22,433 bases of DNA from a virus. Taxonomy: Duplodnaviria > Heunggongvirae > Uroviricota > Caudoviricetes. The stretch is from IMG/VR virus record IMGVR_UViG_2627853732_000005; one strand, written 5' to 3'. The notes beneath the pieces were generated by a model. It had not been told where the DNA came from. It did not search any database and saw only the letters and a program-made list of their open reading frames with translations. Within the stretch, counting starts at the first letter, position 1; the number at the start of each line of letters is the position of its first letter. The translations under genes and the position numbers were made by a program. Shown in pieces: positions 2,343 through 17,610 of the stretch.

Positions 2343-2622
2343 TTAACGCGTATTTTTCAGCGACTCCTGTGCAAAATACGCTGTTGCTTTTTTTAATATA
2401 TCTCGCTCAAGGCGAGCTTCATTTAACGCCTTACGCAGTTGCAGAATTTCAGATTCCAGTTCAGCCACCGTGCGGGAACCAGGAGTACCGAGCCCTTTTC
2501 TGGCGGCGGTAACCCATTGTCCTAAAGTGCCTTCAGGAAGAGATAATCGGGAAGCGCCTTCACTGATCGAAAGTTGATTTTCAAGAACCGTTCTGACAGC
2601 TTCAGCTTTGAACTCTTTAGAG
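2343..2622 (-). pseudogene. IS3-family OrfA (HTH), N-terminally truncated, copy A
   Basis: Track ORF 2343..2645 reads MWSAGIDTSKEFKAEAV... where intact copies read MSRKTQRYSKEFKAEAV.... The first codons therefore come from flanking istA sequence. Confidence 0.7.
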
Positions 2623-3295
2623 GTATCGATACCGGCTGACCACACAGCGCTTCGGGAACGCTGTAACGATTACCACCAACCTCGATATAGCTGTCCCAGG
2701 ACACATGGCGGATATCGAAGTAACTGGTATCGAAGTCTGTATCCGGTAACGGCTGCAGATGTTCCTGCTCCAGCGCGAAGCGCTGTTCCGGCGTTTCTTT
2801 GAACTGGCGAAGCTCCCGTTTGTCAGCCACATCGGCTATCCATTGCTCCAGTTGTTGATTGACATGAGTGAAGCTGTCGAACCTGCGGTACCGGACGAAG
2901 AAGTTCTCCTTGAGGTATTTCACCATCCGCTCAACCTTACCTTTTGTTCTGGCCCTGCGTGGACGGCATGCCCGTGGCAGGAAGTTATAGTGGTCAGCCA
3001 GCAACAGGAATCCGGAGTTGAACACGACTTTCCCGTTGTTATTCTTCAGCACCGCAGCCTTCTGGTTATCAACCAGCACCGTTTTCACACAATCACCGAA
3101 GTAGCGGAAGGCGCGAACCAGTGATTCGTAGGTATGCTCAGCATCCTGTTTTGGTGCGGCGAAGACATGGAAGCTGCGGGAGAACCCCAGCGTATTAACC
3201 GCAAAGTTAACTTTGCACCGTTGCCCGGCAACCTCCACCTCAACTTCGCCCCAGTCATGCTGGAGCTGGTATCCAGGCTGAGTTTCGAAGCGAAC
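2623..3295 (-). pseudogene. istA: IS21-family transposase IstA, central/catalytic fragment
   Basis: Translation from 3295 downward reads VRFETQPGYQLQHDWGEVEVEVAGQRCKVNFAV...LPRACRPRRARTKGKVERMVKYLKENFF, the IstA DDE-region pattern as I recall it. It is cut at 2622/2623 by truncated IS600 copy A. The track ORF 2522..3238 is this frame running on into IS600. Confidence 0.65.
3293..3295. repeat. 3-bp target-site duplication (AAC), left copy, of IS600 copy B
   Basis: AAC directly abuts both ends of the element (3293-3295 and 4560-4562). Confidence 0.8.
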
Positions 3296-3359: not shown

Positions 3360-3662
3360 ATGAGCAGAAAAACCCAACGTTACTCTAAAGAGTTCAAAGC
3401 CGAAGCTGTCAGAACGGTTCTTGAAAATCAACTTTCGATCAGTGAAGGCGCTTCCCGATTATCTCTTCCTGAAGGCACTTTAGGACAATGGGTTACCGCC
3501 GCCAGAAAAGGGCTCGGTACTCCTGGTTCCCGCACGGTGGCTGAACTGGAATCTGAAATTCTGCAACTACGTAAGGCGTTAAATGAAGCTCGCCTTGAGC
3601 GAGATATATTAAAAAAAGCAACAGCGTATTTTGCACAGGAGTCGCTGAAAAATACGCGTTAA
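3360..3662 (+). CDS. IS3-family transposase OrfA (HTH DNA-binding)
   Basis: 100-aa ORF MSRKTQRYSKEFKAEAVRTV...; the identical protein recurs at 12777 and, with one substitution, at 12298 and 20743. Confidence 0.9.
   Translation: MSRKTQRYSKEFKAEAVRTVLENQLSISEGASRLSLPEGTLGQWVTAARKGLGTPGSRTVAELESEILQLRKALNEARLERDILKKATAYFAQESLKNTR
3611..3617 (+). other. candidate programmed -1 ribosomal frameshift site (A7 run followed by G) joining OrfA to OrfB
   Basis: TTAAAAAAAGC near the orfA 3' end. The -1 frame from this point reads KKSNSVFCTGVAEKYALIEQWRQQFPIEAMCQVFGV..., which runs into OrfB. IS3-family elements are known to make OrfAB this way. Confidence 0.6.
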
Positions 3663-3697
3663 TCGAACAATGGCGACAACAATTTCCCATTGAAGCG

Positions 3698-4516
3698 ATG
3701 TGTCAGGTATTTGGTGTATCCAGGAGCGGTTATTACAACTGGGTACAGCATGAACCCTCAGACAGAAAACAAAGTGATGAGCGGCTAAAACTGGAGATTA
3801 AGGTGGCACATATCCGCACTCGCGAAACATATGGAACCCGGCGGCTCCAGACGGAGCTGGCAGAGAATGGCATCATCGTTGGTCGTGACCGACTGGCACG
3901 TCTTCGTAAGGAGCTAAGGCTACGCTGTAAGCAGAAACGCAAGTTCAGAGCGACTACGAACTCGAACCACAATCTGCCAGTTGCGCCAAATCTGCTGAAC
4001 CAGACGTTCACTCCTACAGCACCAAATCAGGTCTGGGTGGCGGACCTGACGTATGTTGCCACACAGGAGGGATGGTTGTACCTCGCTGGCATCAAAGATG
4101 TTTATACGTGCGAAATTGTCGGCTACGCCATGGGAGAGCGCATGACAAAAGAGCTGACAGGTAAAGCCCTGTTTATGGCGCTCAGGAGCCAGCGCCCACC
4201 TGCCGGGCTAATCCACCACTCTGATCGAGGTTCACAGTACTGCGCATACGATTACCGGGTCATACAGGAGCAGTCTGGTCTGAAAACATCAATGTCGCGT
4301 AAAGGTAACTGTTACGACAACGCTCCGATGGAAAGCTTCTGGGGAACGCTGAAAAATGAGAGCCTGAGCCACTATCGTTTTAATAACCGGGATGAAGCCA
4401 TCTCAGTAATACGGGAATACATTGAGATTTTCTACAATCGTCAGCGTCGTCACTCTCGTCTGGGGAATATCTCCCCGGCAGCCTTCAGGGAAAAATATCA
4501 TCAGATGGCTGCTTAA
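3698..4516 (+). CDS. IS3-family transposase OrfB (DDE), copy B
   Basis: 272-aa ORF from the first ATG. Differs from other copies at one visible residue (NQTFTPTAPN versus NQTFAPTAPN). Confidence 0.9.
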   Translation: MCQVFGVSRSGYYNWVQHEPSDRKQSDERLKLEIKVAHIRTRETYGTRRLQTELAENGIIVGRDRLARLRKELRLRCKQKRKFRATTNSNHNLPVAPNLLNQTFTPTAPNQVWVADLTYVATQEGWLYLAGIKDVYTCEIVGYAMGERMTKELTGKALFMALRSQRPPAGLIHHSDRGSQYCAYDYRVIQEQSGLKTSMSRKGNCYDNAPMESFWGTLKNESLSHYRFNNRDEAISVIREYIEIFYNRQRRHSRLGNISPAAFREKYHQMAA

Positions 4517-4559
4517 AAAAAGAACAAATGGTAGTGTCCGCTATTGCCAGTACACCTCA

Positions 4560-4562
4560 AAC
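4560..4562. repeat. 3-bp target-site duplication (AAC), right copy, of IS600 copy B
   Basis: See 3293..3295. Confidence 0.8.
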
Positions 4563-4886
4563 TGTTCTTTTTGACGGACGCATTTTACGTTTGGGCTGGA
4601 TGTAGTAACGCAGCATGGAACGTCCGCCCGTATAACCCATTGCCTTAATCTCCGCGAAGATAACCTCGCTATTCCAGACATTCTCTGCCAGGCGCATGTC
4701 GATGTAATCCATAAACGGTTTCAGCTTAACCATTTTGTGGCGGGTCTTTCTGGCTGGCGGTTCAGGGTATTTGAGGTAGCGTCTGACCGTCCGTTCAGAG
4801 CAACCAATCTGAGTCGCAATATCGACGATGTACGCGCCCTGCTGGCGCATTTGCTTTATCATGTAAAAGTCCTCTCTGCTCAGCAT
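4560..4886 (-). pseudogene. istA: IS21-family transposase IstA, N-terminal HTH fragment
   Basis: ATG at 4886; MLSREDFYMIKQMRQQGAYIVDIATQIGCSERTVRRYLKY...SKRTV, then TGA supplied by the IS600 end. Continues in phase at 3295. Confidence 0.7.
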
Positions 4887-4993
4887 GTTGATGTCCTTTC
4901 TGGTGTGAGAACCTTAAGGAAACAACATGTTGGGTGGAGCGGACAATCCAAATGGCGAATTACCGTCTTATATCACTGGCGCTGACACTTCAT

Positions 4994-5299
4994 CACCTCC
5001 GGACGTAAATCACCATCCTTTGGTGCATTCAGAAACGCGTTCAGTGTCCCCGGTGCATCAGTCGGTGCCACATCAATATCCCCGACACGGGTTGGCTGCC
5101 AGCCGTTACAGTGAAGCGCAACCTCGTAATACCCCGGCTCAGCCTCAATCACATAAGCACCGTTATTGTCCGTCACGCAAGTGGCAACAACGTGTGCCAC
5201 AACGGTCGGACTGGTTCTTCTGGCCCGCAGTTCAATCGCACAATTTACGACAGGTTTACCCGCCCCATCTTTCAGTACACCTGAAATCTTTACTGCCAT
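4994..5299 (-). pseudogene. stf: side tail-fibre gene stf, N-terminal ~102 codons only, truncated by the IS21-family element
   Basis: From ATG at 5299: MAVKISGVLKDGAGKPV...GTLNAFLNAPKDGDLRPEV follows lambda Stf N-terminus as I recall it. It then switches to MKCQRQ-stop, which is IS-derived. Track ORF 4973..5341 begins upstream at an alternative start. Confidence 0.7.
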
Positions 5300-5310
5300 A
5301 TTCACCCCAC

Positions 5311-5335
5311 AAAAAGCCCGCCTGAACCAGCGGGC
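5311..5335 (-). terminator. rho-independent terminator downstream of lom
   Basis: Minus-strand RNA GCCCGC-UGGUUCAG-GCGGGC followed by UUUUU (plus-strand stems 5316-5321 and 5330-5335, A-run 5311-5315). Confidence 0.6.
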
Positions 5336-5362
5336 AGTCATAACACTGTGTTACCTGGCTAA

Positions 5363-5962
5363 TCAGAACTTATAACCGACACCCACGATGAAACCGTCAG
5401 TGCGCCAGTCACCACTGCCGGAACCTTCATAAGCAAGGTCAATGGCCACGGATTCGGTCGGGTTAAACTGCACGCCAGCCCCCCACGCCAGAGACGTGTT
5501 GCTGTGGCGACCGCCATCACTTCCGGTCAGCACATCGTGCGTTTTCCCCTTGTTGTCAGTTACGCGGAGATAATCCCCGGAGAAGGTCGACACACGGCTG
5601 TAAGCCACGCCCGCCATCGCATACGCGCTGAACCATTCATTCACGCGCACAGACGGCCCCGCCATCACGCTGAACCAGCGGTTACGCACGGAATCCTCAT
5701 GCCAGCGGGTATCGCTGTAATGCGTTTTTTGCTCATCTTCAGCGTTGGCATAACTGAATGACGTAATCAGCCCCAGCGTGTCCGTAAACTCATAACGGTA
5801 TTTCACGTTAATGCCCTTCAGGTCATCGCTGCCTGGCATATCAGTATGGGTCTGAAGATACCCGGCGCTCAGCGTGGACTGATGTTCAGACGCCCATGCA
5901 GGCGCACCGGATACGGCCAGACAGATGGCTGCGGACAAAATGGCTGCACAAACTTTACGCAT
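5363..5962 (-). CDS. lom: Lom outer-membrane protein (Ail/Lom family), intact
   Basis: 199 aa with signal peptide MRKVCAAILSAAICLAVSGAPAWA and C-terminal GFIVGVGYKF; closely follows lambda Lom as recalled; lies between J and stf as in lambda. Confidence 0.9.
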   Translation of the reverse strand: MRKVCAAILSAAICLAVSGAPAWASEHQSTLSAGYLQTHTDMPGSDDLKGINVKYRYEFTDTLGLITSFSYANAEDEQKTHYSDTRWHEDSVRNRWFSVMAGPSVRVNEWFSAYAMAGVAYSRVSTFSGDYLRVTDNKGKTHDVLTGSDGGRHSNTSLAWGAGVQFNPTESVAIDLAYEGSGSGDWRTDGFIVGVGYKF

Positions 5963-6029: not shown

Positions 6030-9000
6030 TCAGCTAATCGTGATGCCTGCAGTGGCTTTCTTCATCACCACAACCAGCAAATCGCTGATACTTGCTGTGG
6101 GATACCAGCCATTTACCAGCCATGCCGATACAGAAAACTCCAGCGTCATGTGACCGTGACCGGCAGGCATATCAATAACACCCGTATATATCAGCGTATT
6201 ATCCAGGGTCGTTCGGTTATAAATTTCAGCACCGTTTTTCTTCACTATCAGGCGGCATGACGAATAAATATTGTTATTCTTCCGCTCATGTTTAGCACCG
6301 CGAAACGCCACCGCGGGAATAACAATTTGCCGATCAAACGGCTGATCGTCATAAACCCTGACGGTAATGGTCCCTGATGGCCACCTCTCCGGTGCCCGGG
6401 AGTCCCGTGGGAAAGGTTTGCCCACTGTTTTAACGAGATCGCCTTCAATCTGGTTCGCGGACAATTTTCCCAGAACCCGACAGTTCTTATTAATCGTGAC
6501 GTTGTTGAGCGTCCCGGAGTTCGCGTTCACGTTACCGCTGATATCGGCATTTTTCGCCGTCAGCCGTCCGCCAGGTGTCAGGGAAAATGCCGGAGGATTA
6601 CCGCCGCTGGTAATGGTCGGAGCCGTCAGGCATTTCAGGAACACGTCGTTCATGAATATCTGATCGCCCTGACCAACAAACATCGGCTTTGTGTTGCCAT
6701 TCGCAGGATTAATCATCGCAATCCTGTCTGCCGCCAGCAGCACCTGACTCTGCATTCCTGCTGGCGTATTCTCAATACCGGCACCGATACCCGCAATATA
6801 AAGGCGTCCGTCCTTCATCTGTTGCAGCTTCACAGCCCACATGCTGTTCAGGTTATTATTTGTATCAACCTGAACTTTCTGTATCTGCTGGATTGCAGCA
6901 CTCTGATTTTCCAGTTTTTTATTGACGGTTTGCGTGATTTCATTGCTGACATTCGTAATGGACGTCCTGATTTCAGTCAGGTCCGGCGCAAGCTGACCGT
7001 TATCAATCTGCGTCCACAACTCCTTGCCGAGATGCGTTTTATTGATCAACCCTTTATAAAAATTCAGATAACCTTCTGCATCATCGCTCGCCCGACCGAT
7101 GGCCTCCACAAATGCCGATTTGCCAACGGTGTTCACACTGCGAACGTAAAAATAATAATCATGGCCCGGCCTGATATTGATACTGGCGGCTATCCAGTAC
7201 AGCGCCGTGCCAAGATAGCGGGCGCTGGTTTCAACCTGCCTGATATCCGCAATCCGCTTTTCCGAAAACCAGAACTCAAACTGCACCGTCGGGTCATATA
7301 CAGCCAGTTTCGGGACCGCCGTTATCTGAAAATACCCCGGTATCAGTTCAATAGTGACAGGCGCTGCCGGTGCCGCAATCCGGAACGATACCGACGCCGG
7401 ATCGCCCTGCTGCCCCCGGGCATTTACCGCCCGGACTGTCAGACTGTAATTCCCCAGCGCCAGCTGCCTGAAGCGGTATGTGGTTTCCGTCGTCCTGGCT
7501 GTGCTGACCAGCCGCTCACTGCCGTCGTCCGCTGCCACGGTCAGGCGAAGCAGGAAGCTCACACCCTTCACCACCTTCGGCGTGTCCCATCGCGCCAGCA
7601 CCTGATATTCCCCGCTGTCTGCGGTGACTTCGGCGGTCAGATGCTGCACCGCTGGCGGCGTGACACCATTCACCGTGCCGCGCCGGTCACCGTCAAAGTG
7701 TGCCCCGTTATCCACGATGGCCTCTTTTTCCGGCACATGCTGCACGGCGGTGATGGCATACGTGCCGTCGTCGTTCTCACGGATACTCACGCAGCGGAAC
7801 AGACGCTGGCGCAGCGTCGGCAGCTTCAGCCCCCACACGCTGTATTCTGCAACGCCGTCAGGAACCCGGCTCACTTTCACCTTCACGCCGTCGGTGACGG
7901 ACTGGACCTCCACGCTGACCGGATTGCCACTTCCGTCAACCAGGCTTATCAGCGTGGTACCGGAGGACGGCAGCGTGATTTCACGGTCGAGCGTCAGCGT
8001 CCGGGTCTGGCTGTTCACCGCCAGTACGCGACCACCGGTGCTGATACCGGCATAATCATCATCGCAGATTTCAATGACATCACCCGGTACATGGCGAAGC
8101 CCTTCTGCGCCCACGCTGAAGTCCACGGTCTGCGTTTCCAGCAGTTCCGTTTTAATCAGCCACAGCCCGGCTCGGTGTGCCTGCCCCCGGCTGGTACAGC
8201 CAAAGGCATCCATCTTCGTGACATTACGACCGTAACGGGCAATGGCCTGCGTATCCTCCACAAGCTCTGTCGCCGTCTCCCAGCCGTTATCTGGGTCAAT
8301 CCAGTTCACCTCAACGGCATTATGGCGGTCCTTCAGGGCGCTGAAGCTGTAGCGGAACGGCGCGCCATCGTCCGGCATCACCACATTACTGCGGTTATAG
8401 GTCCACACCTTATCCGACGGTCGGTCCTGCACGAACGTCAGCATCTGTCCGTTCCATACCGGCATACAGCGCATCGCCGAGCAGAAATCACTGAGAACAT
8501 CCCACGCCTTACGCTGTGTGGTCAGGTAAGAGTTACAGGTGATGCGCGGCTCCGTGCCGCCAAATCCGTCCGTCACTGACTGGTCGCAGTACTGGCCGAT
8601 GACATACAGCGCCCATTTGTCCACATCTGCCGCACCAAGACGTTTCCCCATGCCGTAGCGCGGATGAGTGAGCATGTCCCACAGACACCAGGCCATGTTG
8701 TTGCTGTATGCTGGCTTAAGCGTTCCGTCCCAGATACCGCTGTATTGCCGCGTCTGCGGGTTATAGTTCGACGGCACCTGCAGAATGCGCCCGCGAAGAT
8801 GATAATTGCGACTCACCTGCTGGTTACCGAACTGCTCTGAATCCACCTGCACGCCGACCAGCGCCGTGTTCGGGTAGCACTGTTTCACATCGATGATTTC
8901 GGTGTACGACGACCAGAGCGTTTTGTTCTGCAGCTGGTCTGTGGTGCTGTCCGGTGTCATCCTGCGCATCCGGATATTAAACGGGCGCGGCGGCAGGTTA

Positions 9001-9509
9001 CCCACCACCACCGAGGCCAGATACTGCGAAGTGGTTTTGCCCTTAATGGTGATGTCTTTTTCCGTCACCCAGCCACCGTTACGCTGTATCTGAACCAGCA
9101 GGCGGACTTCCGACGGATTCCGGTCACCCTTTGAGGTGGTTTCCACCAGTGCCTGCACACCGAAGGTCAGGCGCAGACGGTCGATGTTTGCCGACGTGAT
9201 GGTCCGGGTGATCGGCGTGTCATATTTCACTTCCGTACCCAGCACCGTCTCGGAGCCGGAGGATTCAAAACCCTCCGGCGGTGTCTGCTCCTGCTCACCT
9301 GCACGGAACACCACCGTAACACCGGAAAAGTTTGTCTTCCCCTCGCTGTCCAGGACCGGCGTACCGTTCAGCAGCACGCTTTTTAATCCATCCACCGGAC
9401 CGTCAACCGGCCCTTCGCTGATGGCATCAATCACACTCAGCAACTGCGTGGATTTCAGGTTGTCCTTCGCTTCGCGCGGGGTATGCCCCTTACTGCTGCC
9501 TTTACCCAT
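6030..9509 (-). CDS. J: tail tip / host-specificity protein J, intact 1159 aa
   Basis: N-terminus [26 protein letters not shown] and most of the length follow lambda gpJ as recalled; the C-terminal receptor-binding part differs (see findings). Confidence 0.95.
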
Positions 9510-9569: not shown

Positions 9570-10211
9570 TCAGCGACCAATCACCACAACCTGACCACCA
9601 TCCCCTTCGTCTGCCGTGCTGATCTCCTGAGAAACCACACGTGACCCCACGCGCATTTCACCGTACAGAACGGGCAGAACATTGCCCTGGGCAACCATGT
9701 TATCCAGTGACGAGAAATACGTGTTCTGCTTACCGTTATCCGTTGTCTGTGTACGGGGAGTTCTGGCTTTCGGTGCCAGCATCTGTGCAACACCGCCAAG
9801 CGTCATACTGGCACCGAGAGAAAACAGCAGATTACTCGCCATAATTCCTACCCCCGGCATCCATATAGCAACCGCCATAACAGCCGCCCCCAGCACCGCC
9901 TGAAACACACCGCCACTTTTAGCTCCCACCAGACGCGGTACTATGTGGATCACTGCACCATTTGCCAGCGGCTCATTAAGACGGGCAGACAATTCGGTTT
10001 CACCTGCATCACGCCCGGCAATGCGCACCTGATACCAGCCGTCACTCAGTTTCTGACGAAACGCCGGGAGCTGTGTGGCCAGTGCCCGGATGGCTTCAGC
10101 CCCCGTTTTCACACGAAGGTCGATGCGGCGACCAAATCGTTGTAAATCCCCGTAAAGGCAGATGCGCGCCATGCCCGGTGACGCCAGAGGGAGTGTGTGC
10201 GTCGCTGCCAT
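9570..10211 (-). CDS. I: tail assembly protein I
   Basis: 213 aa, MAATHTLPLASPGMARICLYGDLQRFG...GGQVVVIGR, lambda gpI-like; its 5' end overlaps the 3' end of K. Confidence 0.9.
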   Translation of the reverse strand: MAATHTLPLASPGMARICLYGDLQRFGRRIDLRVKTGAEAIRALATQLPAFRQKLSDGWYQVRIAGRDAGETELSARLNEPLANGAVIHIVPRLVGAKSGGVFQAVLGAAVMAVAIWMPGVGIMASNLLFSLGASMTLGGVAQMLAPKARTPRTQTTDNGKQNTYFSSLDNMVAQGNVLPVLYGEMRVGSRVVSQEISTADEGDGGQVVVIGR

Positions 10212-10852
10212 TTGTCGGTGTACCTCTCTCGTTTGCTCAGTTGTTCAGGAATATGGTGCAGCAGCCCGCCGTCACCGCAGTAAATGGCGGCATGATTCGG
10301 CACCGATGAACCAAAACAGCACAGCAGCACATCGCCCGGCTGTGCCTCTGTCAGTGCGACACGGTAAAAACCCGTCACCTCCATATTGTCAAGATAGAGA
10401 TTCTGACCGTTACGCCACCAGTCATCCCCGCGATGAAAATCCGGCATCTCAATCCCTGCCAGATGATAAGCATCCCGGAACAGCGTGTAACAGTCCGTCA
10501 CCCCGTGCTCAAAGCGCCGCCCGGTGAGATGCGGCACACAGCGGAACTTGTGAATCGCCCCCCGGCAGACCAGCCACCACGGCAAATCACTCTGCACCTG
10601 CAGCCGCCGGTCAGCCTCACTCAGCCAGGGCAGACCACCGGGATGACTGTGGACCAGCGCCACAATCTCACCCTGCATTTGTGCCCGCAGCCAGTCCTCC
10701 GGAGCCATCCGGAACCGTTCCTCCGGCTCACCGGAGATATTCTCGCTGGGAAGATACCTGTCTCCCTCCGGCGTTCTTACCACGAAGCCACACGACTCCG
10801 CTGGCGCACATCGCCGGGCGTGCGCCAGAATCGCTGATTCTGTCTGTGTCAT
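10109..10852 (-). CDS. K: tail assembly protein K
   Basis: Start reassigned to ATG at 10852 (MTQTESAILAHARRCAPAESCGFVV...), 5 nt after the L stop. Contains an HSHPGG metal-binding motif. The track ORF 10109..11116 is a 5'-extended artefact. Confidence 0.9.
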   Translation of the reverse strand: MTQTESAILAHARRCAPAESCGFVVRTPEGDRYLPSENISGEPEERFRMAPEDWLRAQMQGEIVALVHSHPGGLPWLSEADRRLQVQSDLPWWLVCRGAIHKFRCVPHLTGRRFEHGVTDCYTLFRDAYHLAGIEMPDFHRGDDWWRNGQNLYLDNMEVTGFYRVALTEAQPGDVLLCCFGSSVPNHAAIYCGDGGLLHHIPEQLSKRERYTDKWQRRTHSLWRHRAWRASAFTGIYNDLVAASTFV

Positions 10853-10856
10853 GGAT

Positions 10857-11555
10857 TTACTGAGAAAGTTTATTGATGGAAAGGAAACCGCCGAAATTAC
10901 CGGTATTGTTGCGCAACTCACACCCGCGCATACACTTGCTGCATTTGTCCTTCCGGATATCCGTCGTTGGTTTGTCGAACTCGTCAGCCACTGCCCTGCC
11001 CGTGTAACCACACTCATCAGAACGGTAAGTCCACATACAGGTATTCGCCAGCATGATACGCCCCGGGAAAACCGCGCCATCCGTCTCCGTTGGTGTGGCC
11101 AGCACAAAAGAGGCACTGACCGCGCTCAGTTCGCTGCACTGCTCGATGCGCCAGCGGCTGATCACCTCCTGTTCCGGATCGGCGTCGCTGTTTCCGTTGA
11201 CGAAGTTCACCGCATCCAGAAAACGGGCGTAAACCTTACGCCTGACCACCGTTCCGCCGACCAGACTCTGCAGGTCTTCCGCCATCCCGGTGACCATTCC
11301 GTGCAGGTTAGAAACCGTCAGTGTCGGACGGGCAGCACTGCCCTTGCCGTTCAGTTCAAATCCCGTCCCCTGAATGGGGTATGCCTGATACTGCCGCCCC
11401 TGCCAGGTAACCGGCTCACCTTTTTCGTTCTGCTCATTACAGAAAAAATAACGTTCACCACCGACCTCTGTCAGATCGATTTCCCAGAGCACCACCTGGG
11501 CTGACTGAGTGAGGCGTGTCGTCTCATGATGTGTTTCCTGTGGAATATCCTGCAT
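10857..11555 (-). CDS. L: minor tail protein L
   Basis: 232 aa, MQDIPQETHHETTRLTQSAQVVLWEIDLTEVGGERYFFCNEQNEKGEPV..., lambda gpL-like. Confidence 0.95.
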   Translation of the reverse strand: MQDIPQETHHETTRLTQSAQVVLWEIDLTEVGGERYFFCNEQNEKGEPVTWQGRQYQAYPIQGTGFELNGKGSAARPTLTVSNLHGMVTGMAEDLQSLVGGTVVRRKVYARFLDAVNFVNGNSDADPEQEVISRWRIEQCSELSAVSASFVLATPTETDGAVFPGRIMLANTCMWTYRSDECGYTGRAVADEFDKPTTDIRKDKCSKCMRGCELRNNTGNFGGFLSINKLSQ

Positions 11556-11564
11556 CAGAGCCTC

Positions 11565-11894
11565 CTATGCCACGACCTGTTCAAAATCTGCCGTTATGGT
11601 TACCCACAACGCCCCCACGCTTGCCGACCATTTACGACAAACCACCCTGATCGGCTTCCAGTCATAAGGTGGCGTCCACTGAAATGCGCGGACGCCACCG
11701 TGCCGTTCCAGAAAGGCTTTTAAAAATGGGTGTTCACCTTTACGAACACGTATCTTCACGCTGTAAGTCGACAACTGGTTATTCAGTCCCGCCGCACGAC
11801 GCTGTTCATAACCATCGCCCAGCTTCACTGTCACCACTTTCGGCTCTGATACCACATTCATATCCGGGCGCACTTTCCAGTGAAACGTCTCCAT
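11565..11894 (-). CDS. M: minor tail protein M
   Basis: 109 aa, METFHWKVRPDMNVVSEPK...FEQVVA, lambda gpM-like; its start overlaps the stop of the H fragment (TAATG). Confidence 0.95.
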   Translation of the reverse strand: METFHWKVRPDMNVVSEPKVVTVKLGDGYEQRRAAGLNNQLSTYSVKIRVRKGEHPFLKAFLERHGGVRAFQWTPPYDWKPIRVVCRKWSASVGALWVTITADFEQVVA

Positions 11895-12233
11895 TACCGG
11901 TATGCTCCACTTAACCGGCCACCATCACGGGCCTGCTGTTGCATAAAGTCCGCGGCCGCTTTTTTCCCGAGGTCATAAACCACCTTCAGGGCAGCCGGAC
12001 CTATCTGCCCGTTCGTGCCATCGTTATTGATCTCAATGTTGTACTGCGGGGCAAACATCACCATGCCTGAACCACCAGTATCCGCCACACCCCCCAGCTT
12101 ACCATCAGCACCGCGACGCAGTGGCAGAATGGCTTCAGGTCCCGCTTCCCCCATCACACCCGCGCCTTTTGCAAAAGCAAAAAACGTCGGACGGTTAACC
12201 ACCGTGCCACTGTAGCGACTCAAATCAGCAGAC
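11894..12233 (-). pseudogene. H: tail tape-measure gene H, C-terminal ~110 codons only; 5' part replaced by IS600
   Basis: Track ORF 11894..12259 begins with codons read out of the IS600 left end (SVKLRLPQ), then continues as an open frame that ends at the stop overlapping the M start. Identity inferred from position and frame. Confidence 0.7.
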
Positions 12234-12715
12234 TGAGGTAGCCTGAGTTTAACGGACACTCCTTCCTGAAATAGAATGGCATCAGAAGGAGCTAATAATG
12301 AGCAGAAAAACCCAACGTTACTCTAAAGAGTTCAAAGCCGAAGCTGTCAGAACGGTTCCTGAAAATCAACTTTCGATCAGTGAAGGCGCTTCCCGATTAT
12401 CTCTTCCTGAAGGCACTTTAGGACAATGGGTTACCGCCGCCAGAAAAGGGCTCGGTACTCCTGGTTCCCGCACGGTGGCTGAACTGGAATCTGAAATTCT
12501 GCAACTGCGTAAGGCGTTAAATGAAGCTCGCCTTGAGCGAGATATATTAAAAAAAGCAACAGCGTATTTTGCACAGGAGTCGCTGAAAAATACGCGTTAA
12601 TCGAACAATGGCGACAACAATTTCCCATTGAAGCGATGTGTCAGGTATTTGGTGTATCCAGGAGCGGTTATTACAACTGGGTACAGCATGAACCCTCAGA
12701 CAGAAAACAAAGTGA
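12234..12715 (+). mobile_element. IS600-like element, copy C, left 482 bp only
   Basis: Left terminal repeat at 12234, orfA, and the first ~20 codons of orfB. The sequence then jumps at 12713-12715 (shared TGA) into the left end of copy D. Confidence 0.85.
12298..12600 (+). CDS. IS3-family transposase OrfA, copy C
   Basis: 100 aa; carries the VPENQ variant (VLENQ in copies B and D). Confidence 0.8.
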   Translation: MSRKTQRYSKEFKAEAVRTVPENQLSISEGASRLSLPEGTLGQWVTAARKGLGTPGSRTVAELESEILQLRKALNEARLERDILKKATAYFAQESLKNTR

Positions 12716-12776
12716 GGTAGCCTGAGTTTAACGGACACTCCTTCCTGAAATAGAATGGCATCAGAAGGAGCTAATA

Positions 12777-13079
12777 ATGAGCAGAAAAACCCAACGTTAC
12801 TCTAAAGAGTTCAAAGCCGAAGCTGTCAGAACGGTTCTTGAAAATCAACTTTCGATCAGTGAAGGCGCTTCCCGATTATCTCTTCCTGAAGGCACTTTAG
12901 GACAATGGGTTACCGCCGCCAGAAAAGGGCTCGGTACTCCTGGTTCCCGCACGGTGGCTGAACTGGAATCTGAAATTCTGCAACTGCGTAAGGCGTTAAA
13001 TGAAGCTCGCCTTGAGCGAGATATATTAAAAAAAGCAACAGCGTATTTTGCACAGGAGTCGCTGAAAAATACGCGTTAA
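12777..13079 (+). CDS. IS3-family transposase OrfA, copy D
   Basis: 100 aa, identical in translation to copy B OrfA. Confidence 0.85.
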   Translation: MSRKTQRYSKEFKAEAVRTVLENQLSISEGASRLSLPEGTLGQWVTAARKGLGTPGSRTVAELESEILQLRKALNEARLERDILKKATAYFAQESLKNTR

Positions 13080-13114
13080 TCGAACAATGGCGACAACAAT
13101 TTCCCATTGAAGCG

Positions 13115-13754
13115 ATGTGTCAGGTATTTGGTGTATCCAGGAGCGGTTATTACAACTGGGTACAGCATGAACCCTCAGACAGAAAACAAAGTGATGAGCG
13201 GCTAAAACTGGAGATTAAGGTGGCACATATCCGCACTCGCGAAACATATGGAACCCGGCGGCTCCAGACGGAGCTGGCAGAGAATGGCATCATCGTTGGT
13301 CGTGACCGACTGGCACGTCTTCGTAAGGAGCTAAGGCTACGCTGTAAGCAGAAACGCAAGTTCAGAGCGACTACGAACTCGAACCACAATCTGCCAGTTG
13401 CGCCAAATCTGCTGAACCAGACGTTCGCTCCTACAGCACCAAATCAGGTCTGGGTGGCGGACCTGACGTATGTTGCCACACAGGAGGGATGGTTGTACCT
13501 CGCAGGAGCAGTCTGGTCTGAAAACATCAATGTCGCGTAAAGGTAACTGTTACGACAACGCTCCGATGGAAAGCTTCTGGGGAACGCTGAAAAATGAGAG
13601 CCTGAGCCACTATCGTTTTAATAACCGGGATGAAGCCATCTCAGTAATACGGGAATACATTGAGATTTTCTACAATCGTCAGCGTCGTCACTCTCGTCTG
13701 GGGAATATCTCCCCGGCAGCCTTCAGGGAAAAATATCATCAGATGGCTGCTTAA
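13115..13754 (+). pseudogene. IS3-family transposase OrfB disrupted by internal deletion, copy D
   Basis: Track shows two fragments (13115..13540 and 13470..13754) in different frames; the first diverges after EGWLYLAG. Confidence 0.8.
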
Positions 13755-13979: not shown

Positions 13980-14054
<75 letters not shown>

Positions 14055-14057
14055 ATA

Positions 14058-14133
<76 letters not shown>

Positions 14134-14135
14134 GC

Positions 14136-14212
14136 TGGCCCACCACCGAGGACTCGAACCTCGCACCGTCAACTTAGAAGGTTGATGCTCTATCCGGATG
14201 AGCTAGTGGTGG
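14136..14212 (-). tRNA. tRNA-Arg (anticodon UCU)
   Basis: Reverse complement CCACCACTAGCTCATCCGGATAGAGCATCAACCTTCTAAGTTGACGGTGCGAGGTTCGAGTCCTCGGTGGTGGGCCA. Acceptor CCACCAC/GTGGTGG, anticodon stem TCAAC/GTTGA, loop CTTCTAA; encoded CCA. Confidence 0.8.
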
Positions 14213-14213
14213 T

Positions 14214-14290
14214 TGGTGGCCCTTGCTGGACTTGAACCAGCGACCTGGCGATTATGAGTCGCTCGCTCTGACCAACTGAGCTAAAGGGCC
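14214..14290 (-). tRNA. tRNA with CAU anticodon, most likely Ile2 (lysidine type) rather than elongator Met
   Basis: Reverse complement GGCCCTTTAGCTCAGTTGGTCAGAGCGAGCGACTCATAATCGCCAGGTCGCTGGTTCAAGTCCAGCAAGGGCCACCA. Anticodon loop CTCATAA. Overall close to E. coli ileX as I remember it; Ile versus Met cannot be settled by eye. Confidence 0.75.
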
Positions 14291-14479: not shown

Positions 14480-15034
14480 TCAAAAAGCAATAACTTTTTT
14501 CTCTATACCAAAAGCCATAACCATTGGTTTGTACAAAATAAATTCTGCCACCTTTAGCCAATGCTCAATGCGTCTTTCACAGGTTCTTAAACTCCATTTC
14601 GGGTGTGCATCATTCAGCAGTTCAGCCATTTTGCGTTTGGTCATCCCCCGCCCCTCATACCGTTGCCGAAGGACGCTAATCAATCCTGGATGCTCTGCCA
14701 GCACCTCACTTATGACCCGATCAATACATAACGCCTCTGCATCAGTACAATGCGCCAGCCAGCTCTTTTGCTTACCGTTAATCATATCCCGCAAAAAAGC
14801 CTCAAGTTCAGACTTGTTCAGACCTGCTTTTTTCATCCTCCGGAGCGCCTCGTTAATTGCCGTTTTTGTCAGCTTTTTAGAGGTCAACATCAGGTTAAAC
14901 ATATTCCCCGTCTTACCGCCACCAATATACGACCAGCGCCCCCACATACGTAGTTTTCCCTGAATCCAGACACTTTCCAGCGTGGTGAGACGAAGGTGTT
15001 CTCCGCTTTTTCCTGTATTCGTTGGGTAAATCAT
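14480..15034 (-). CDS. late-gene antiterminator Q-like protein (QuuD/Q82-type)
   Basis: Start reassigned to ATG at 15034 (MIYPTNTGKSGEHLRL...), which overlaps the upstream stop as ATGA and is preceded by GGAGG. Contains LRMWGRW and CTDAEALCIDRV, resembling the ERWGAW / C.DD...I motifs of QuuD as recalled. Sits between nin genes and the terminator/tRNAs. Confidence 0.65.
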   Translation of the reverse strand: MIYPTNTGKSGEHLRLTTLESVWIQGKLRMWGRWSYIGGGKTGNMFNLMLTSKKLTKTAINEALRRMKKAGLNKSELEAFLRDMINGKQKSWLAHCTDAEALCIDRVISEVLAEHPGLISVLRQRYEGRGMTKRKMAELLNDAHPKWSLRTCERRIEHWLKVAEFILYKPMVMAFGIEKKVIAF

Positions 15035-15321
15035 AAATATCCCTCCTTTCTCCAGATTTCTTGTGTGCGAAAAACACCTTCTGCATGCATCAGGCGTAAT
15101 TCTTCTTTGGTGTAATCGCTGGTTTTTACCCGCCCGTCGATTAAATCGTGGCACGAGCTACAGGCAATCGCTGCCTGCATATCGTGTGGCTTTATCGCTG
15201 TTCCGCACGTTCCCGCCAGTCGGTAATGCGCCAGCACAGACGTTTCCGGATCGTGATTGCAGTAGCCAGGAATTCTGACGGTGCACATCTGCCCCCGCGC
15301 CGCTTTACGTAAATCCACCAT
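15031..15321 (-). CDS. YbcO-like nin-region protein (DUF1364-type, Cys-rich)
   Basis: 96 aa, MVDLRKAARGQMCTVRIPGYCNHDPETSVLAHYRLAG...AIACSSCHD, resembling DLP12 YbcO as recalled; start overlaps the upstream stop (TAATG). Confidence 0.65.
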   Translation of the reverse strand: MVDLRKAARGQMCTVRIPGYCNHDPETSVLAHYRLAGTCGTAIKPHDMQAAIACSSCHDLIDGRVKTSDYTKEELRLMHAEGVFRTQEIWRKEGYL

Positions 15322-15920
15322 TACGCAAACTCCAGCAGCTGCGCGGCCACATTTTCGACTTGTTCCGGAGAGGAAAATTTACGGAACAGAATCCAGTTCC
15401 ACAGCACATTCAGAACAGATTTATAAACCTGCTGAAACTCGGTTTCGTCCATATTCGCAAAAGCGATGGATTTTGCCCGACGCCCGCGGCTACCGTCCGG
15501 ATAAAAATGTTCGGTGTAAAATCCAGCCTGAATGGTTACCCACTCGCGAAAAGCCTCAAACGACTTTAGCAATGCCGTATCCCGGGTTCTGCGTGTCGCA
15601 ACTGTATTCAGATATTGCTCTGCGGCTTCGCTCAGAGCTGGCGTATGTTCCCGACCTACTGATTCGCACAGGTAATCAACGAAACCAGACAGCAGTTCTC
15701 GTTCGCGAGGCGTGATCGCCCCACCGACCGGAGTCCAGTAATCGAATCCCAGTTGCAGGAGTTTGAAAAAACGCTTGTGGAATGCGTAGTTACGCACACG
15801 CTTAAAGTCTGCGTGTATCCACTCACCTGTTTTGATTTGATGCAGAAAATCGCAACTCTCCGGCGTCGCCGGGAGAAGTAATCCGGAAGAGGTTTGTTTG
15901 ATCAGTTGTATATGCGCCAT
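15321..15920 (-). CDS. nin-region phage protein of unknown function
   Basis: 199-aa ORF in the same operon orientation, tightly coupled to the following gene. I suspect a DUF family but cannot recall it reliably. Confidence 0.55.
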   Translation of the reverse strand: MAHIQLIKQTSSGLLLPATPESCDFLHQIKTGEWIHADFKRVRNYAFHKRFFKLLQLGFDYWTPVGGAITPRERELLSGFVDYLCESVGREHTPALSEAAEQYLNTVATRRTRDTALLKSFEAFREWVTIQAGFYTEHFYPDGSRGRRAKSIAFANMDETEFQQVYKSVLNVLWNWILFRKFSSPEQVENVAAQLLEFA

Positions 15921-16204: not shown

Positions 16205-16310
16205 GATGCCTCCAGGTTTATAAGTACAAACGGTTATATCAACATAGAGACAAAAGGTGATGCTGCCAACTTACTGATTTAGTGTATGATCGTGTTTTTG
16301 AGGTGCTCCA

Positions 16311-16586
16311 GTGGCTTCTGTTTCTATCAGCTGTCCCTCCTGTTCAGCTACTGACGGGGTGGTGCGTAACGGCAAAAGCACTGCCGGACATCAGCGCTAT
16401 CTCTGCTCTCACTGCCGTAAAACATGGCAACTGCAGTTCACTTACACCGCTTCCCAACCCGGTACGCACCAGAAAATCATTGATATGGCCATGAATGGCG
16501 TTGGATGCCGGGCAACTGCACGCATTATGGGCGTTGGCCTCAACACGATTTTACGTCACTTAAAAAACTCAGGCCGCAGTCGGTAA
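16311..16586 (+). CDS. insA: IS1 InsA
   Basis: [43 protein letters not shown]..., 91 aa. Confidence 0.95.
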
Positions 16587-17008
16587 CCTCGCGCATACAG
16601 CCGGGCAGTGACGTCATCGTCTGCGCGGAAATGGACGAACAGTGGGGCTATGTCGGGGCTAAATCGCGCCAGCGCTGGCTGTTTTACGCGTATGACAGTC
16701 TCCGGAAGACGGTTGTTGCGCACGTATTCGGTGAACGCACTATGGCGACGCTGGGGCGTCTTATGAGCCTGCTGTCACCCTTTGACGTGGTGATATGGAT
16801 GACGGATGGCTGGCCGCTGTATGAATCCCGCCTGAAGGGAAAGCTGCACGTAATCAGCAAGCGATATACGCAGCGAATTGAGCGGCATAACCTGAATCTG
16901 AGGCAGCACCTGGCACGGCTGGGACGGAAGTCGCTGTCGTTCTCAAAATCGGTGGAGCTGCATGACAAAGTCATCGGGCATTATCTGAACATAAAACACT
17001 ATCAATAA
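16505..17008 (+). CDS. insB: IS1 InsB reading frame (expressed as an InsAB' fusion after a -1 frameshift)
   Basis: 167-aa ORF as given by the track; the functional transposase is known to be the frameshift fusion. Confidence 0.9.
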
Positions 17009-17115: not shown

Positions 17116-17271
17116 TTACTCTCTAGATTCGTAGTCTACGAAAACAGCGACCTCCGTCTGGCCGATTCGGATTCGTACCTCGCAGAGGTCTTTCCTCGTT
17201 ACCAGTGCCGTCACAATGACGGTTAAACAGATGACGATCAGGGCGATTAACATCGCCTTTTGCTGCTTCAT
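17116..17271 (-). CDS. hok: Hok/Gef-family type I toxin (51 aa); the in-frame upstream extension to 17328 is Mok-like
   Basis: MKQQKAMLIALIVICLTVIVTALVTRKDLCEVRIRIGQTEVAVFVDYESRE closely follows HokD/HokC as recalled. AAGGAG lies 9 nt upstream of the ATG at 17271. Confidence 0.85.
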   Translation of the reverse strand: MKQQKAMLIALIVICLTVIVTALVTRKDLCEVRIRIGQTEVAVFVDYESRE

Positions 17272-17610
17272 AGCCTGCTTCTCCTTGCCTTTCGGCACGT
17301 AAGAGGCTAACCTACATTTGTGAGACATAGATTGGGCCTCAGATTAATGTTAAGCGTCTTGCAGGACGCGTAATGTTAACTGGGGCTTTTCTCTGTCTGC
17401 CTTACAGTGACATACCCGAGGCAGACAGCCTCAAGCACCCGCAGCAATCTTACCGACACCGATAAGAAAACGCTATTTTTTATTGCCAGCACCATCTATC
17501 CAGGCTAGTTTATCTGCGTCAGAACGGCGCAATGCGCTCGCCTGAGATACGTTTACTTGCCATGGTAACAACAGGTAACGGCAATTGCTGTTTCTGTTTT
17601 GTTTCCTTCA

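Follow-up and report, generated by a model that had tools for sequence, protein, structure and literature searches.

A complete host specificity protein J with a lambda-like body and a receptor-binding tip of the VT1-Sakai type, probably directed to OmpC, in a defective lambdoid prophage

In phage lambda, four bottom loops of the three immunoglobulin (Ig)-like domains of host specificity protein J (gpJ) enter the LamB trimer; the trimer then spreads at the bottom and closes at the top, the beta-prism is compacted and rotated through new hydrogen bonds, and a flip of the helical shaft and opening of the hub follow (PMC11101478). That the J C-terminus can be exchanged with a switch of porin has long been known from lambda h434 hybrids (cited in PMC11101478), and natural differences in the J specificity region among enterobacterial prophages have already been studied systematically, with four hot spots of indels and variation at 1012, 1048-1049, 1077-1078 and 1107 within the lambda specificity region 960-1132 (Maddamsetti et al. 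2018, PMC6646904). One natural type of tip has been tested experimentally (PMC11338833) and used in a therapeutic vector (bioRxiv 10.1101/2025.02.28.640725). A 22,433 nucleotide (nt) stretch of viral DNA (Caudoviricetes; IMG/VR record IMGVR_UViG_2627853732_000005), here called the window, was found to carry a complete J gene that is lambda-like in its first two thirds and related to J of the Escherichia coli O157 prophage VT1-Sakai in its last third, and that ends in a receptor-binding domain (RBD) of the experimentally tested type.

The J gene, encoding the tip attachment or host specificity protein, occupies 6030..9509 on the minus strand, as do all segments of J given below, and comprises 1159 codons plus the stop, with an uninterrupted frame according to the open reading frame (ORF) list and the translation. 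Its Pfam series consists of FNIII-A_GpJ (residues 86-207), Phage-tail_3 (330-498), Ig_J (611-714), Ig_J_second (716-818), Phage_Tail_Tip (872-1000) and Ig_GpJ_C (1030-1159), and the full gpJ set is present: hub domains, two FNIII/Ig domains, helical shaft, beta-prism fibre and C-terminal Ig-like RBD. The exact 1159 amino acid (aa) sequence is already catalogued in RefSeq as 'MULTISPECIES: host specificity protein J [Shigella]'; it is indexed in 1582 assembly blocks, and the names in its cluster are almost throughout those of Shigella sonnei. The genome of origin is Shigella, most likely S. sonnei.

Identities to lambda J (J02459) were tallied per segment from an alignment that spans the full length of both proteins (82% identity). 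Residues 1-816 were identical at 781 of 816 positions (95.7%), in line with the lambda-like body described in an earlier reading made without database searches (the sequence-only reading), and all the peptide strings cited there were found in the translation. Residues 817-900 matched at 24 of 84 positions with 28 gap positions, which makes a second divergent block, outside the region considered by that reading and unremarked there. Identity returned to 75% (82/109) over residues 901-1009 and fell to 40% (60/150) over residues 1010-1159, which aligned end to end with a single gap of one residue. The sequence-only reading had placed the departure from lambda in the last 150-200 residues. Over residues 960-1159 as a whole 103 of 200 positions agreed (51.5%); the statement holds for the last 150 residues (6033-6482), but residues 960-1009 are about 90% lambda-like, and the true break in the C-terminal part lies near residue 1010. 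The lambda loops at 1012, 1048-1052, 1077-1078 and 1106-1107 all differ in the window J, plus one indel. Thus, at 40% identity, the alignment did not return the standard lambda LamB-binding domain, for which close identity to lambda ~985-1132, including the four bottom loops, would be expected.

The position at which the gene changes parentage was located with informative sites, i.e. positions where the lambda and VT1-Sakai references differ. The first 2160 nt of J were 91-98% identical to lambda versus 62-83% to VT1-Sakai J, and about 95% of the informative sites in codons 1-720 (7350..9509; hub domains and first FNIII/Ig domain) agreed with lambda. From about nt 2430 the identity was 87-100% to VT1-Sakai versus 41-64% to lambda, with one conserved bin excepted, and the informative sites of codons 811-1159 were overwhelmingly of VT1-Sakai type (e.g. 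69:0 and 40:2 per 90-nt bin). Codons 721-810 (7080..7349) form the crossover zone, with few and mixed informative sites (eight lambda-like, seven VT1-Sakai-like) between clear flanks. The J gene is therefore a recombinant, lambda-like to about codon 720 and VT1-Sakai-like from about codon 810, and with the switch at this place the exchanged unit is shaft, fibre and RBD together, not the RBD alone. Within J, the GC content is 0.59-0.61 in the body but falls to about 0.50 over the 3' third. An antisense ORF of 585 aa at 6822-8579 on the plus strand, wholly within the GC-rich part of J, is most likely an artefact of codon bias.

The divergent block at codons 817-900 (6810..7061), delimited by the BLASTP gaps, identity and an AlphaFold2 (AF2) model, corresponds to the alpha-helical shaft, which in lambda J comprises residues 809-861 (Ge & Wang, PMC11101478). 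BLASTP placed a 28-residue insertion relative to lambda at about codons 837-864 (6918-7001), as two lambda gaps of 21 and 7 residues. Helices were predicted at 811-823, 826-836 and 844-899, in a single-sequence AF2 model of the monomer with a predicted TM score of 0.40, which is indicative only. It is a reasonable inference that the shaft of the window J is longer by 28 residues, or four heptads. Over residues 810-900 the identity reaches 91% with VT1-Sakai and 89% with phage 21, and both share the insertion, so a long shaft is evidently compatible with function in these two. The central straight fibre, or beta-prism, follows at codons 901-1009 (6483..6809; Phage_Tail_Tip), where the identity is 75% to lambda and 96% to VT1-Sakai.

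The last segment, codons 1010-1159 (6033..6482), was assigned to the RBD on the basis of identities, Pfam family, modelled fold and Foldseek matches. It matches PF12421 Ig_GpJ_C ('Tip attachment protein J, C-terminal receptor binding domain') with 124.8 bits over profile positions 2-135 of 135. In a phmmer search of the last 326 residues against PDB, 9wca ('A8 gpJ 713') was found with E 1.9e-118 and lambda gpJ713 (8xcj) with 1.1e-95. After fragments and frameshifted pseudogene products were taken out of the homologue set, AF2 gave a model of residues 1001-1159 with a mean predicted local distance difference test value of 76 and nine beta-strands. Foldseek placed this model closest to 9wca and 9wcb and then to 8xck and 8xcj (TM scores of 0.76-0.79), all other structures being far worse. 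Of these, 9wca is closed A8 gpJ, 9wcb is 'Open state of A8 gpJ 713 central tail fiber with OmpC G17 from E. coli EDL933', and 8xck/8xcj are lambda gpJ, closed and with LamB. Judged by sequence and predicted fold, the C-terminal domain is a diverged allele of the lambda RBD, not another kind of domain; the term 'different' used for it in the sequence-only reading applies to the allele and not to the domain family or the fold.

Within this family, the RBD is 92.7% identical to VT1-Sakai, 66.4% to phage 21, 63.0% to A8, 42.2% to phage 434 and 40.0% to lambda. No gap separates the window from VT1-Sakai across 350 aligned residues, and the RBD loop lengths are unchanged. In the phage collection, the same type of tip (88-94% identical) occurs in VT1-Sakai, PPompW prophages, many long-tailed Shiga toxin (Stx) 1a and 2a phages, phage 2G7b and vB_EcoS-640R1. 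With at least 90% identity and equal loop lengths over residues 991-1159, the module swapped in the experiments described below, the window falls into the VT1-Sakai/1A2 type, although the residues in the putative contact loops are not the same. It stands apart from the A8/phage 21 type, being 63-66% identical, without the 5-residue extension that marks the long hairpin (NFNSNNQQSYW) of that type and with a longer first loop (DSRAPERW).

The receptor used by this type of tip has been addressed by Brödel et al. 2024 (PMC11338833), who fused natural J C-termini to lambda J and selected LamB-independent chimeras. The supplementary 'GpJ 1A2' sequence of that work begins as lambda DNA, which gives way after ...AKNADISG to a recoded module, and of the codons that could be read there 177 of 183 are identical to VT1-Sakai, 166/183 to the window, 130/178 to phage 21 and 95/181 to lambda. 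It was read from PDF text with indels from optical character recognition (OCR), and since tblastn broke into frames a frameshift-tolerant alignment was used instead; about ten frameshift artefacts were present. As read in this way, 1A2 carries a VT1-Sakai-type tip, and the swap of lambda ~964-1132 alone suffices for the change of receptor. Delivery into wild-type MG1655, which has LamB, was 5.2% for 1A2 versus 97.7% for lambda, and in MG1655 delta-lamB delta-ompC with OmpC supplied in trans 1A2 reached at least 76% at the top multiplicity of infection for 20 of the 23 OmpC alleles (PMC11338833). The delivery was about 1-2% with the alleles G1, G2 and G40 (PMC11338833), and G1 is taken as the K-12 allele because its numbers equal those of the panel labelled OmpC-MG1655. 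K-12 OmpC is accepted by A8, not by the 1A2 type (PMC11338833). In a follow-up preprint, gpJ-1A2 is stated to recognise OmpC of EDL933 and not LamB (bioRxiv 10.1101/2025.02.28.640725).

One irregularity was noted in the deposited data. In supplementary file 10 of PMC11338833 (source data of Extended Data Fig. 2), the numbers of panel C (OmpC-EDL933) repeat those of panel B (1A2 = 2%) and clash with Fig. 1b, Extended Data Fig. 1 (G17) and Extended Data Fig. 8a (~98%) of the same work. This is probably a copy error in the table.

The identity of 92.7% to the VT1-Sakai tip together with the use of OmpC by 1A2 indicates that the window type of tip binds OmpC, not LamB, with selectivity among OmpC alleles, and OmpC is favoured with fair confidence as the receptor of this exact allele. 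The view of the sequence-only reading that another outer-membrane receptor is targeted is in this way borne out, indirectly but specifically. The set of OmpC alleles that the window tip would accept is, like the receptor itself, inferred.

Several points weigh against this assignment. The use of OmpC was demonstrated for the 1A2 module, from which the window allele differs at 12 of ~169 residues, and the 1A2 sequence entered the comparison from OCR-damaged text. Of the 11 differences in the RBD, six (the 1076-1080 block and position 1134) lie within two of the four hot-spot loops that have been published. Moreover, receptor use shifts easily within the J family and is not predicted by overall similarity: the tip of phage 21 and the OmpC-binding tip of A8 share 81.5% identity, yet LamB is the native receptor of phage 21, which acquires OmpC by the single substitution I1025T, just above the domain (Gerbino et al. 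2024, PMC11336670). The native use of LamB by phage 21 therefore lowers the confidence that can be placed in similarity alone, and phage 21 was dropped as an example of a native OmpC user on the same account (PMC11336670). Position 1025 is L in both the window and VT1-Sakai. Two other sources were set aside, namely a 2026 preprint on receptor prediction, which covers Drexlerviridae-type GpJ and explicitly excludes lambda J, and the OmpC-using Stx phage phi330, whose tip has 35-40% pairwise identity to 434 and lambda according to its paper.

The proposed origin and action of the protein can be put as follows. J is a complete lambda-family tail-tip protein made by recombination, with ~720 lambda-like codons and the last ~350 from the O157-prophage lineage (VT1-Sakai). 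In a functional particle, the bottom loops of the three Ig-like domains at the C-terminal end of the J trimer would enter a trimeric porin, most likely OmpC and not LamB for the window allele. The tip would open in response, and this change would travel up the fibre and trigger DNA ejection, a course demonstrated for lambda with LamB and for gpJ A8 with OmpC. As the window protein has all the parts that match those of lambda, the same relay is expected by homology, with OmpC as the trigger; a pair of closed and open structures in PDB also exists for A8 gpJ, the open state with OmpC (9wca/9wcb).

The condition of the surrounding prophage raises a different possibility, namely that J is an inert relic and that the receptor question is moot in this genome. 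As in lambda, the gene order is M-L-K-I-J-lom and then the side tail fibre, and all these genes lie on the minus strand: M at 11565-11894 (Phage_min_tail), L at 10857-11555 (phage_tail_L), K at 10109-10852 (Prok-JAB and NLPC_P60), I at 9570-10211 (Lambda_tail_I) and lom at 5363..5962, which has NCBIfam matches of OmpX/Ail type and is annotated Ail/Lom in matching genomes. A lom gene is the usual neighbour downstream of J. Both ends of this block are truncated by insertion sequence (IS) elements. Upstream, the tape-measure gene H has been reduced to its last 121 aa (11894-12259, minus strand; tape_meas_lam_C positions 258-332 of 332 only) by an IS3-family element, a copy of which begins at about 12226. 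Downstream, the side tail fibre has been cut off by IS sequences to its N-terminal 122 aa (4973..5341, minus strand; Pfam phage_tail_N 1-104 of 134), the intact counterpart in E. coli FDAARGOS_943 having 470 aa. No head, terminase or tail-tube genes were found in the window between the Q-like, YbcO and DUF1367 genes (14480-15920) and the H remnant. Five copies or fragments of IS3-family elements were counted, three of them full and 100% identical (1446-2622, 3383-4559 and 20766-21942) and two partial (12226-12715 and 12705-13506), in addition to two IS1 copies (~16256-17008 and ~19772-20524).

With H and the side fibre truncated and the head genes absent, J cannot build particles in this genome. 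Several S. sonnei chromosomes show this context in identical form, and the simplest explanation of the intact frame is that the prophage decayed recently, in a young clone. On the other side, the 1159-codon frame is uninterrupted and the same allele is present in an apparently complete prophage elsewhere. It is nevertheless very probable that J is inert here, and it is best seen as a recent relic, possibly a donor in recombination. Such a status concerns the use of the protein rather than its biochemical capacity, and is compatible with the assignment of the tip to OmpC.

The prophage arrangement of the window recurs in S. sonnei chromosomes, where it adjoins a sitABCD-like metal ABC transporter beyond the tail-fibre end. 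The phage 21 record has sitC/sitD annotated after the fibre genes as well, which suggests a shared cargo module. Among 5426 complete E. coli genomes, the tip allele (99.8% nt identity) was found in eight and the tip type (at least 80% nt) in 3378. E. coli FDAARGOS_943 (NZ_CP065615, 291-332 kb) carries this tip allele, at 99.8% nt identity, within a morphogenesis module that appears complete and runs from terminase to the 470-aa side fibre, so the allele belongs to plausibly functional phages elsewhere. The FDAARGOS_943 prophage carries a frameshifted ipaH effector as cargo and is inserted at yehV/btsSR, by yehV/btsR, the attachment locus of VT1-Sakai.

It may also be asked whether the loops of the window tip have moved it away from the receptor range of 1A2. 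Relative to VT1-Sakai/1A2 there are 11 differences in the last 150 residues and 12 within the swapped module. All five residues of the hairpin tip R1076-K-N-N-N1080 (6270..6284) differ from the K-E-H-T-D of VT1-Sakai/1A2; the site, located with a difference map, is homologous to lambda 1048-1052 and lies on a predicted beta-hairpin (strands 72-76 and 79-91 of the model). The other site is G1134 (6108..6110), N in VT1-Sakai/1A2 and D in other alleles, which aligns to lambda A1106/D1107. From the lambda hot spots and the hairpins of the model, both are putative receptor-contact loops. They are the most variable sites among the database homologues of this tip type (KNNN, NHTD, EHTD, ENND and ENSD at the hairpin; G, N or D at 1134).

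On these grounds, RKNNN with G1134 could be an allele associated with Shigella and enteroinvasive E. coli (EIEC) that has been retargeted to another porin (e.g. OmpF) or to a narrow, shifted set of OmpC variants (e.g. Shigella/EIEC-type) unlike that of 1A2. The clustering of the differences in two hot-spot loops agrees with this, and few changes are needed for the gain of a receptor, about four in lambda (PMC6646904) and one in phage 21 (PMC11336670). In addition, the exact allele, taken at 99% identity or more, is rare in E. coli (8/5426) though the tip type is common. However, loop lengths are the same as in VT1-Sakai, the acceptance of 20/23 OmpC alleles by 1A2 indicates a tolerant type of tip, and no signal of positive selection was seen between the window and VT1-Sakai tips by a crude Nei-Gojobori count (ratio of nonsynonymous to synonymous differences, pN/pS, 0.17 in the RBD and 0.29 in the hairpin region; small counts). 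Retargeting by these loops appears rather unlikely; if true, it would be a case of natural fine-scale retargeting within one RBD type, at loop positions found by laboratory evolution of lambda. That the tip binds LamB, like lambda or wild-type phage 21, despite its divergence is highly improbable, as the domain family and fold shared with lambda and the native LamB use of phage 21 (RBD 66% identical) are opposed by the mere 40% identity to the lambda tip, the poor delivery of the 92.7%-identical VT1-Sakai/1A2 module into wild-type MG1655 and the dependence of 1A2 on the OmpC allele supplied in a delta-lamB background.

Other features of the window are recorded here. An IS21-family transposase gene is split by an IS3 copy into 4557-4886 and 2522-3238, the former part adjoining the side-fibre remnant. 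Four tRNA genes (Gly-TCC, Thr-TGT, Arg-TCT and Met-CAT) lie at 13980-14290 on the minus strand, a short way downstream of the Q-like antiterminator gene (14480-15154); the late regions of Stx-type lambdoid phages typically have clusters of this kind. The Rfam sok antitoxin RNA was matched at 17266-17440 (minus strand) with 118 bits against a gathering threshold of 59, and a HOK_GEF gene is called at the equivalent place in matching S. sonnei loci, so that a hok/sok toxin-antitoxin locus inside the early region of the prophage is indicated. Directly after an IS3 copy, an ORF at 21927-22433 (plus strand), which runs to the end of the window, has a Phage_integrase match (E 1e-13) and could encode the integrase of a prophage or an island, perhaps in truncated form. 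In S. sonnei CP019689 (~4.618-4.651 Mb) the block from the H remnant through M-L-K-I-J to lom, with the identical 1159-aa J, is present twice, ~9.4 kb apart and with an IS3-family element between, probably owing to IS-mediated duplication or an assembly artefact.

A lambda-like J with an OmpC-type tip is an ordinary mosaic of an already known kind, and only its hairpin sub-allele goes beyond what has been studied by experiment. The current understanding of J modularity is unchanged and the practical value is small. A prophage gene that is very common in Shigella and E. coli gains a better functional label, likely OmpC-binding instead of 'lambda J, LamB', and annotators are reminded that most natural J genes do not have the LamB allele of lambda. 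The hairpin sub-allele might also be useful in the construction of lambda particles for DNA delivery, as an additional part, provided that its OmpC spectrum is unlike that of either 1A2 or A8.

Compared with the known systems, the window J has the domain architecture and the neighbourhood M-L-K-I-J-lom of lambda gpJ (PDB 8xcj, 8xck, 8iyk), which has a shaft shorter by 28 residues, LamB as its receptor and an RBD with 40% identity. Phage 434 J, the OmpC-binding protein of the classical h434 swap, in which exchange of J or of its C-terminus redirects lambda to OmpC (PMC11101478), belongs to the same family and has three loop insertions and a short, lambda-like shaft. In phage 21 the long shaft is shared and the fibre is 93% identical to that of the window, and the hairpin is longer. 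OmpC-binding gpJ A8 (9wca, 9wcb) has the same fold at the tip and is the best PDB match both by sequence and by structure (TM 0.76-0.77), whereas its hairpin is 5 residues longer and its first loop 4 residues shorter. The C-terminal ~350 residues share parentage in DNA with J of VT1-Sakai (Sp15, E. coli O157:H7), at 87-100% nt identity, while over codons 1-720 the two genes are only 62-83% identical; the VT1-Sakai J is itself annotated as split by mutation, and the window J is intact.

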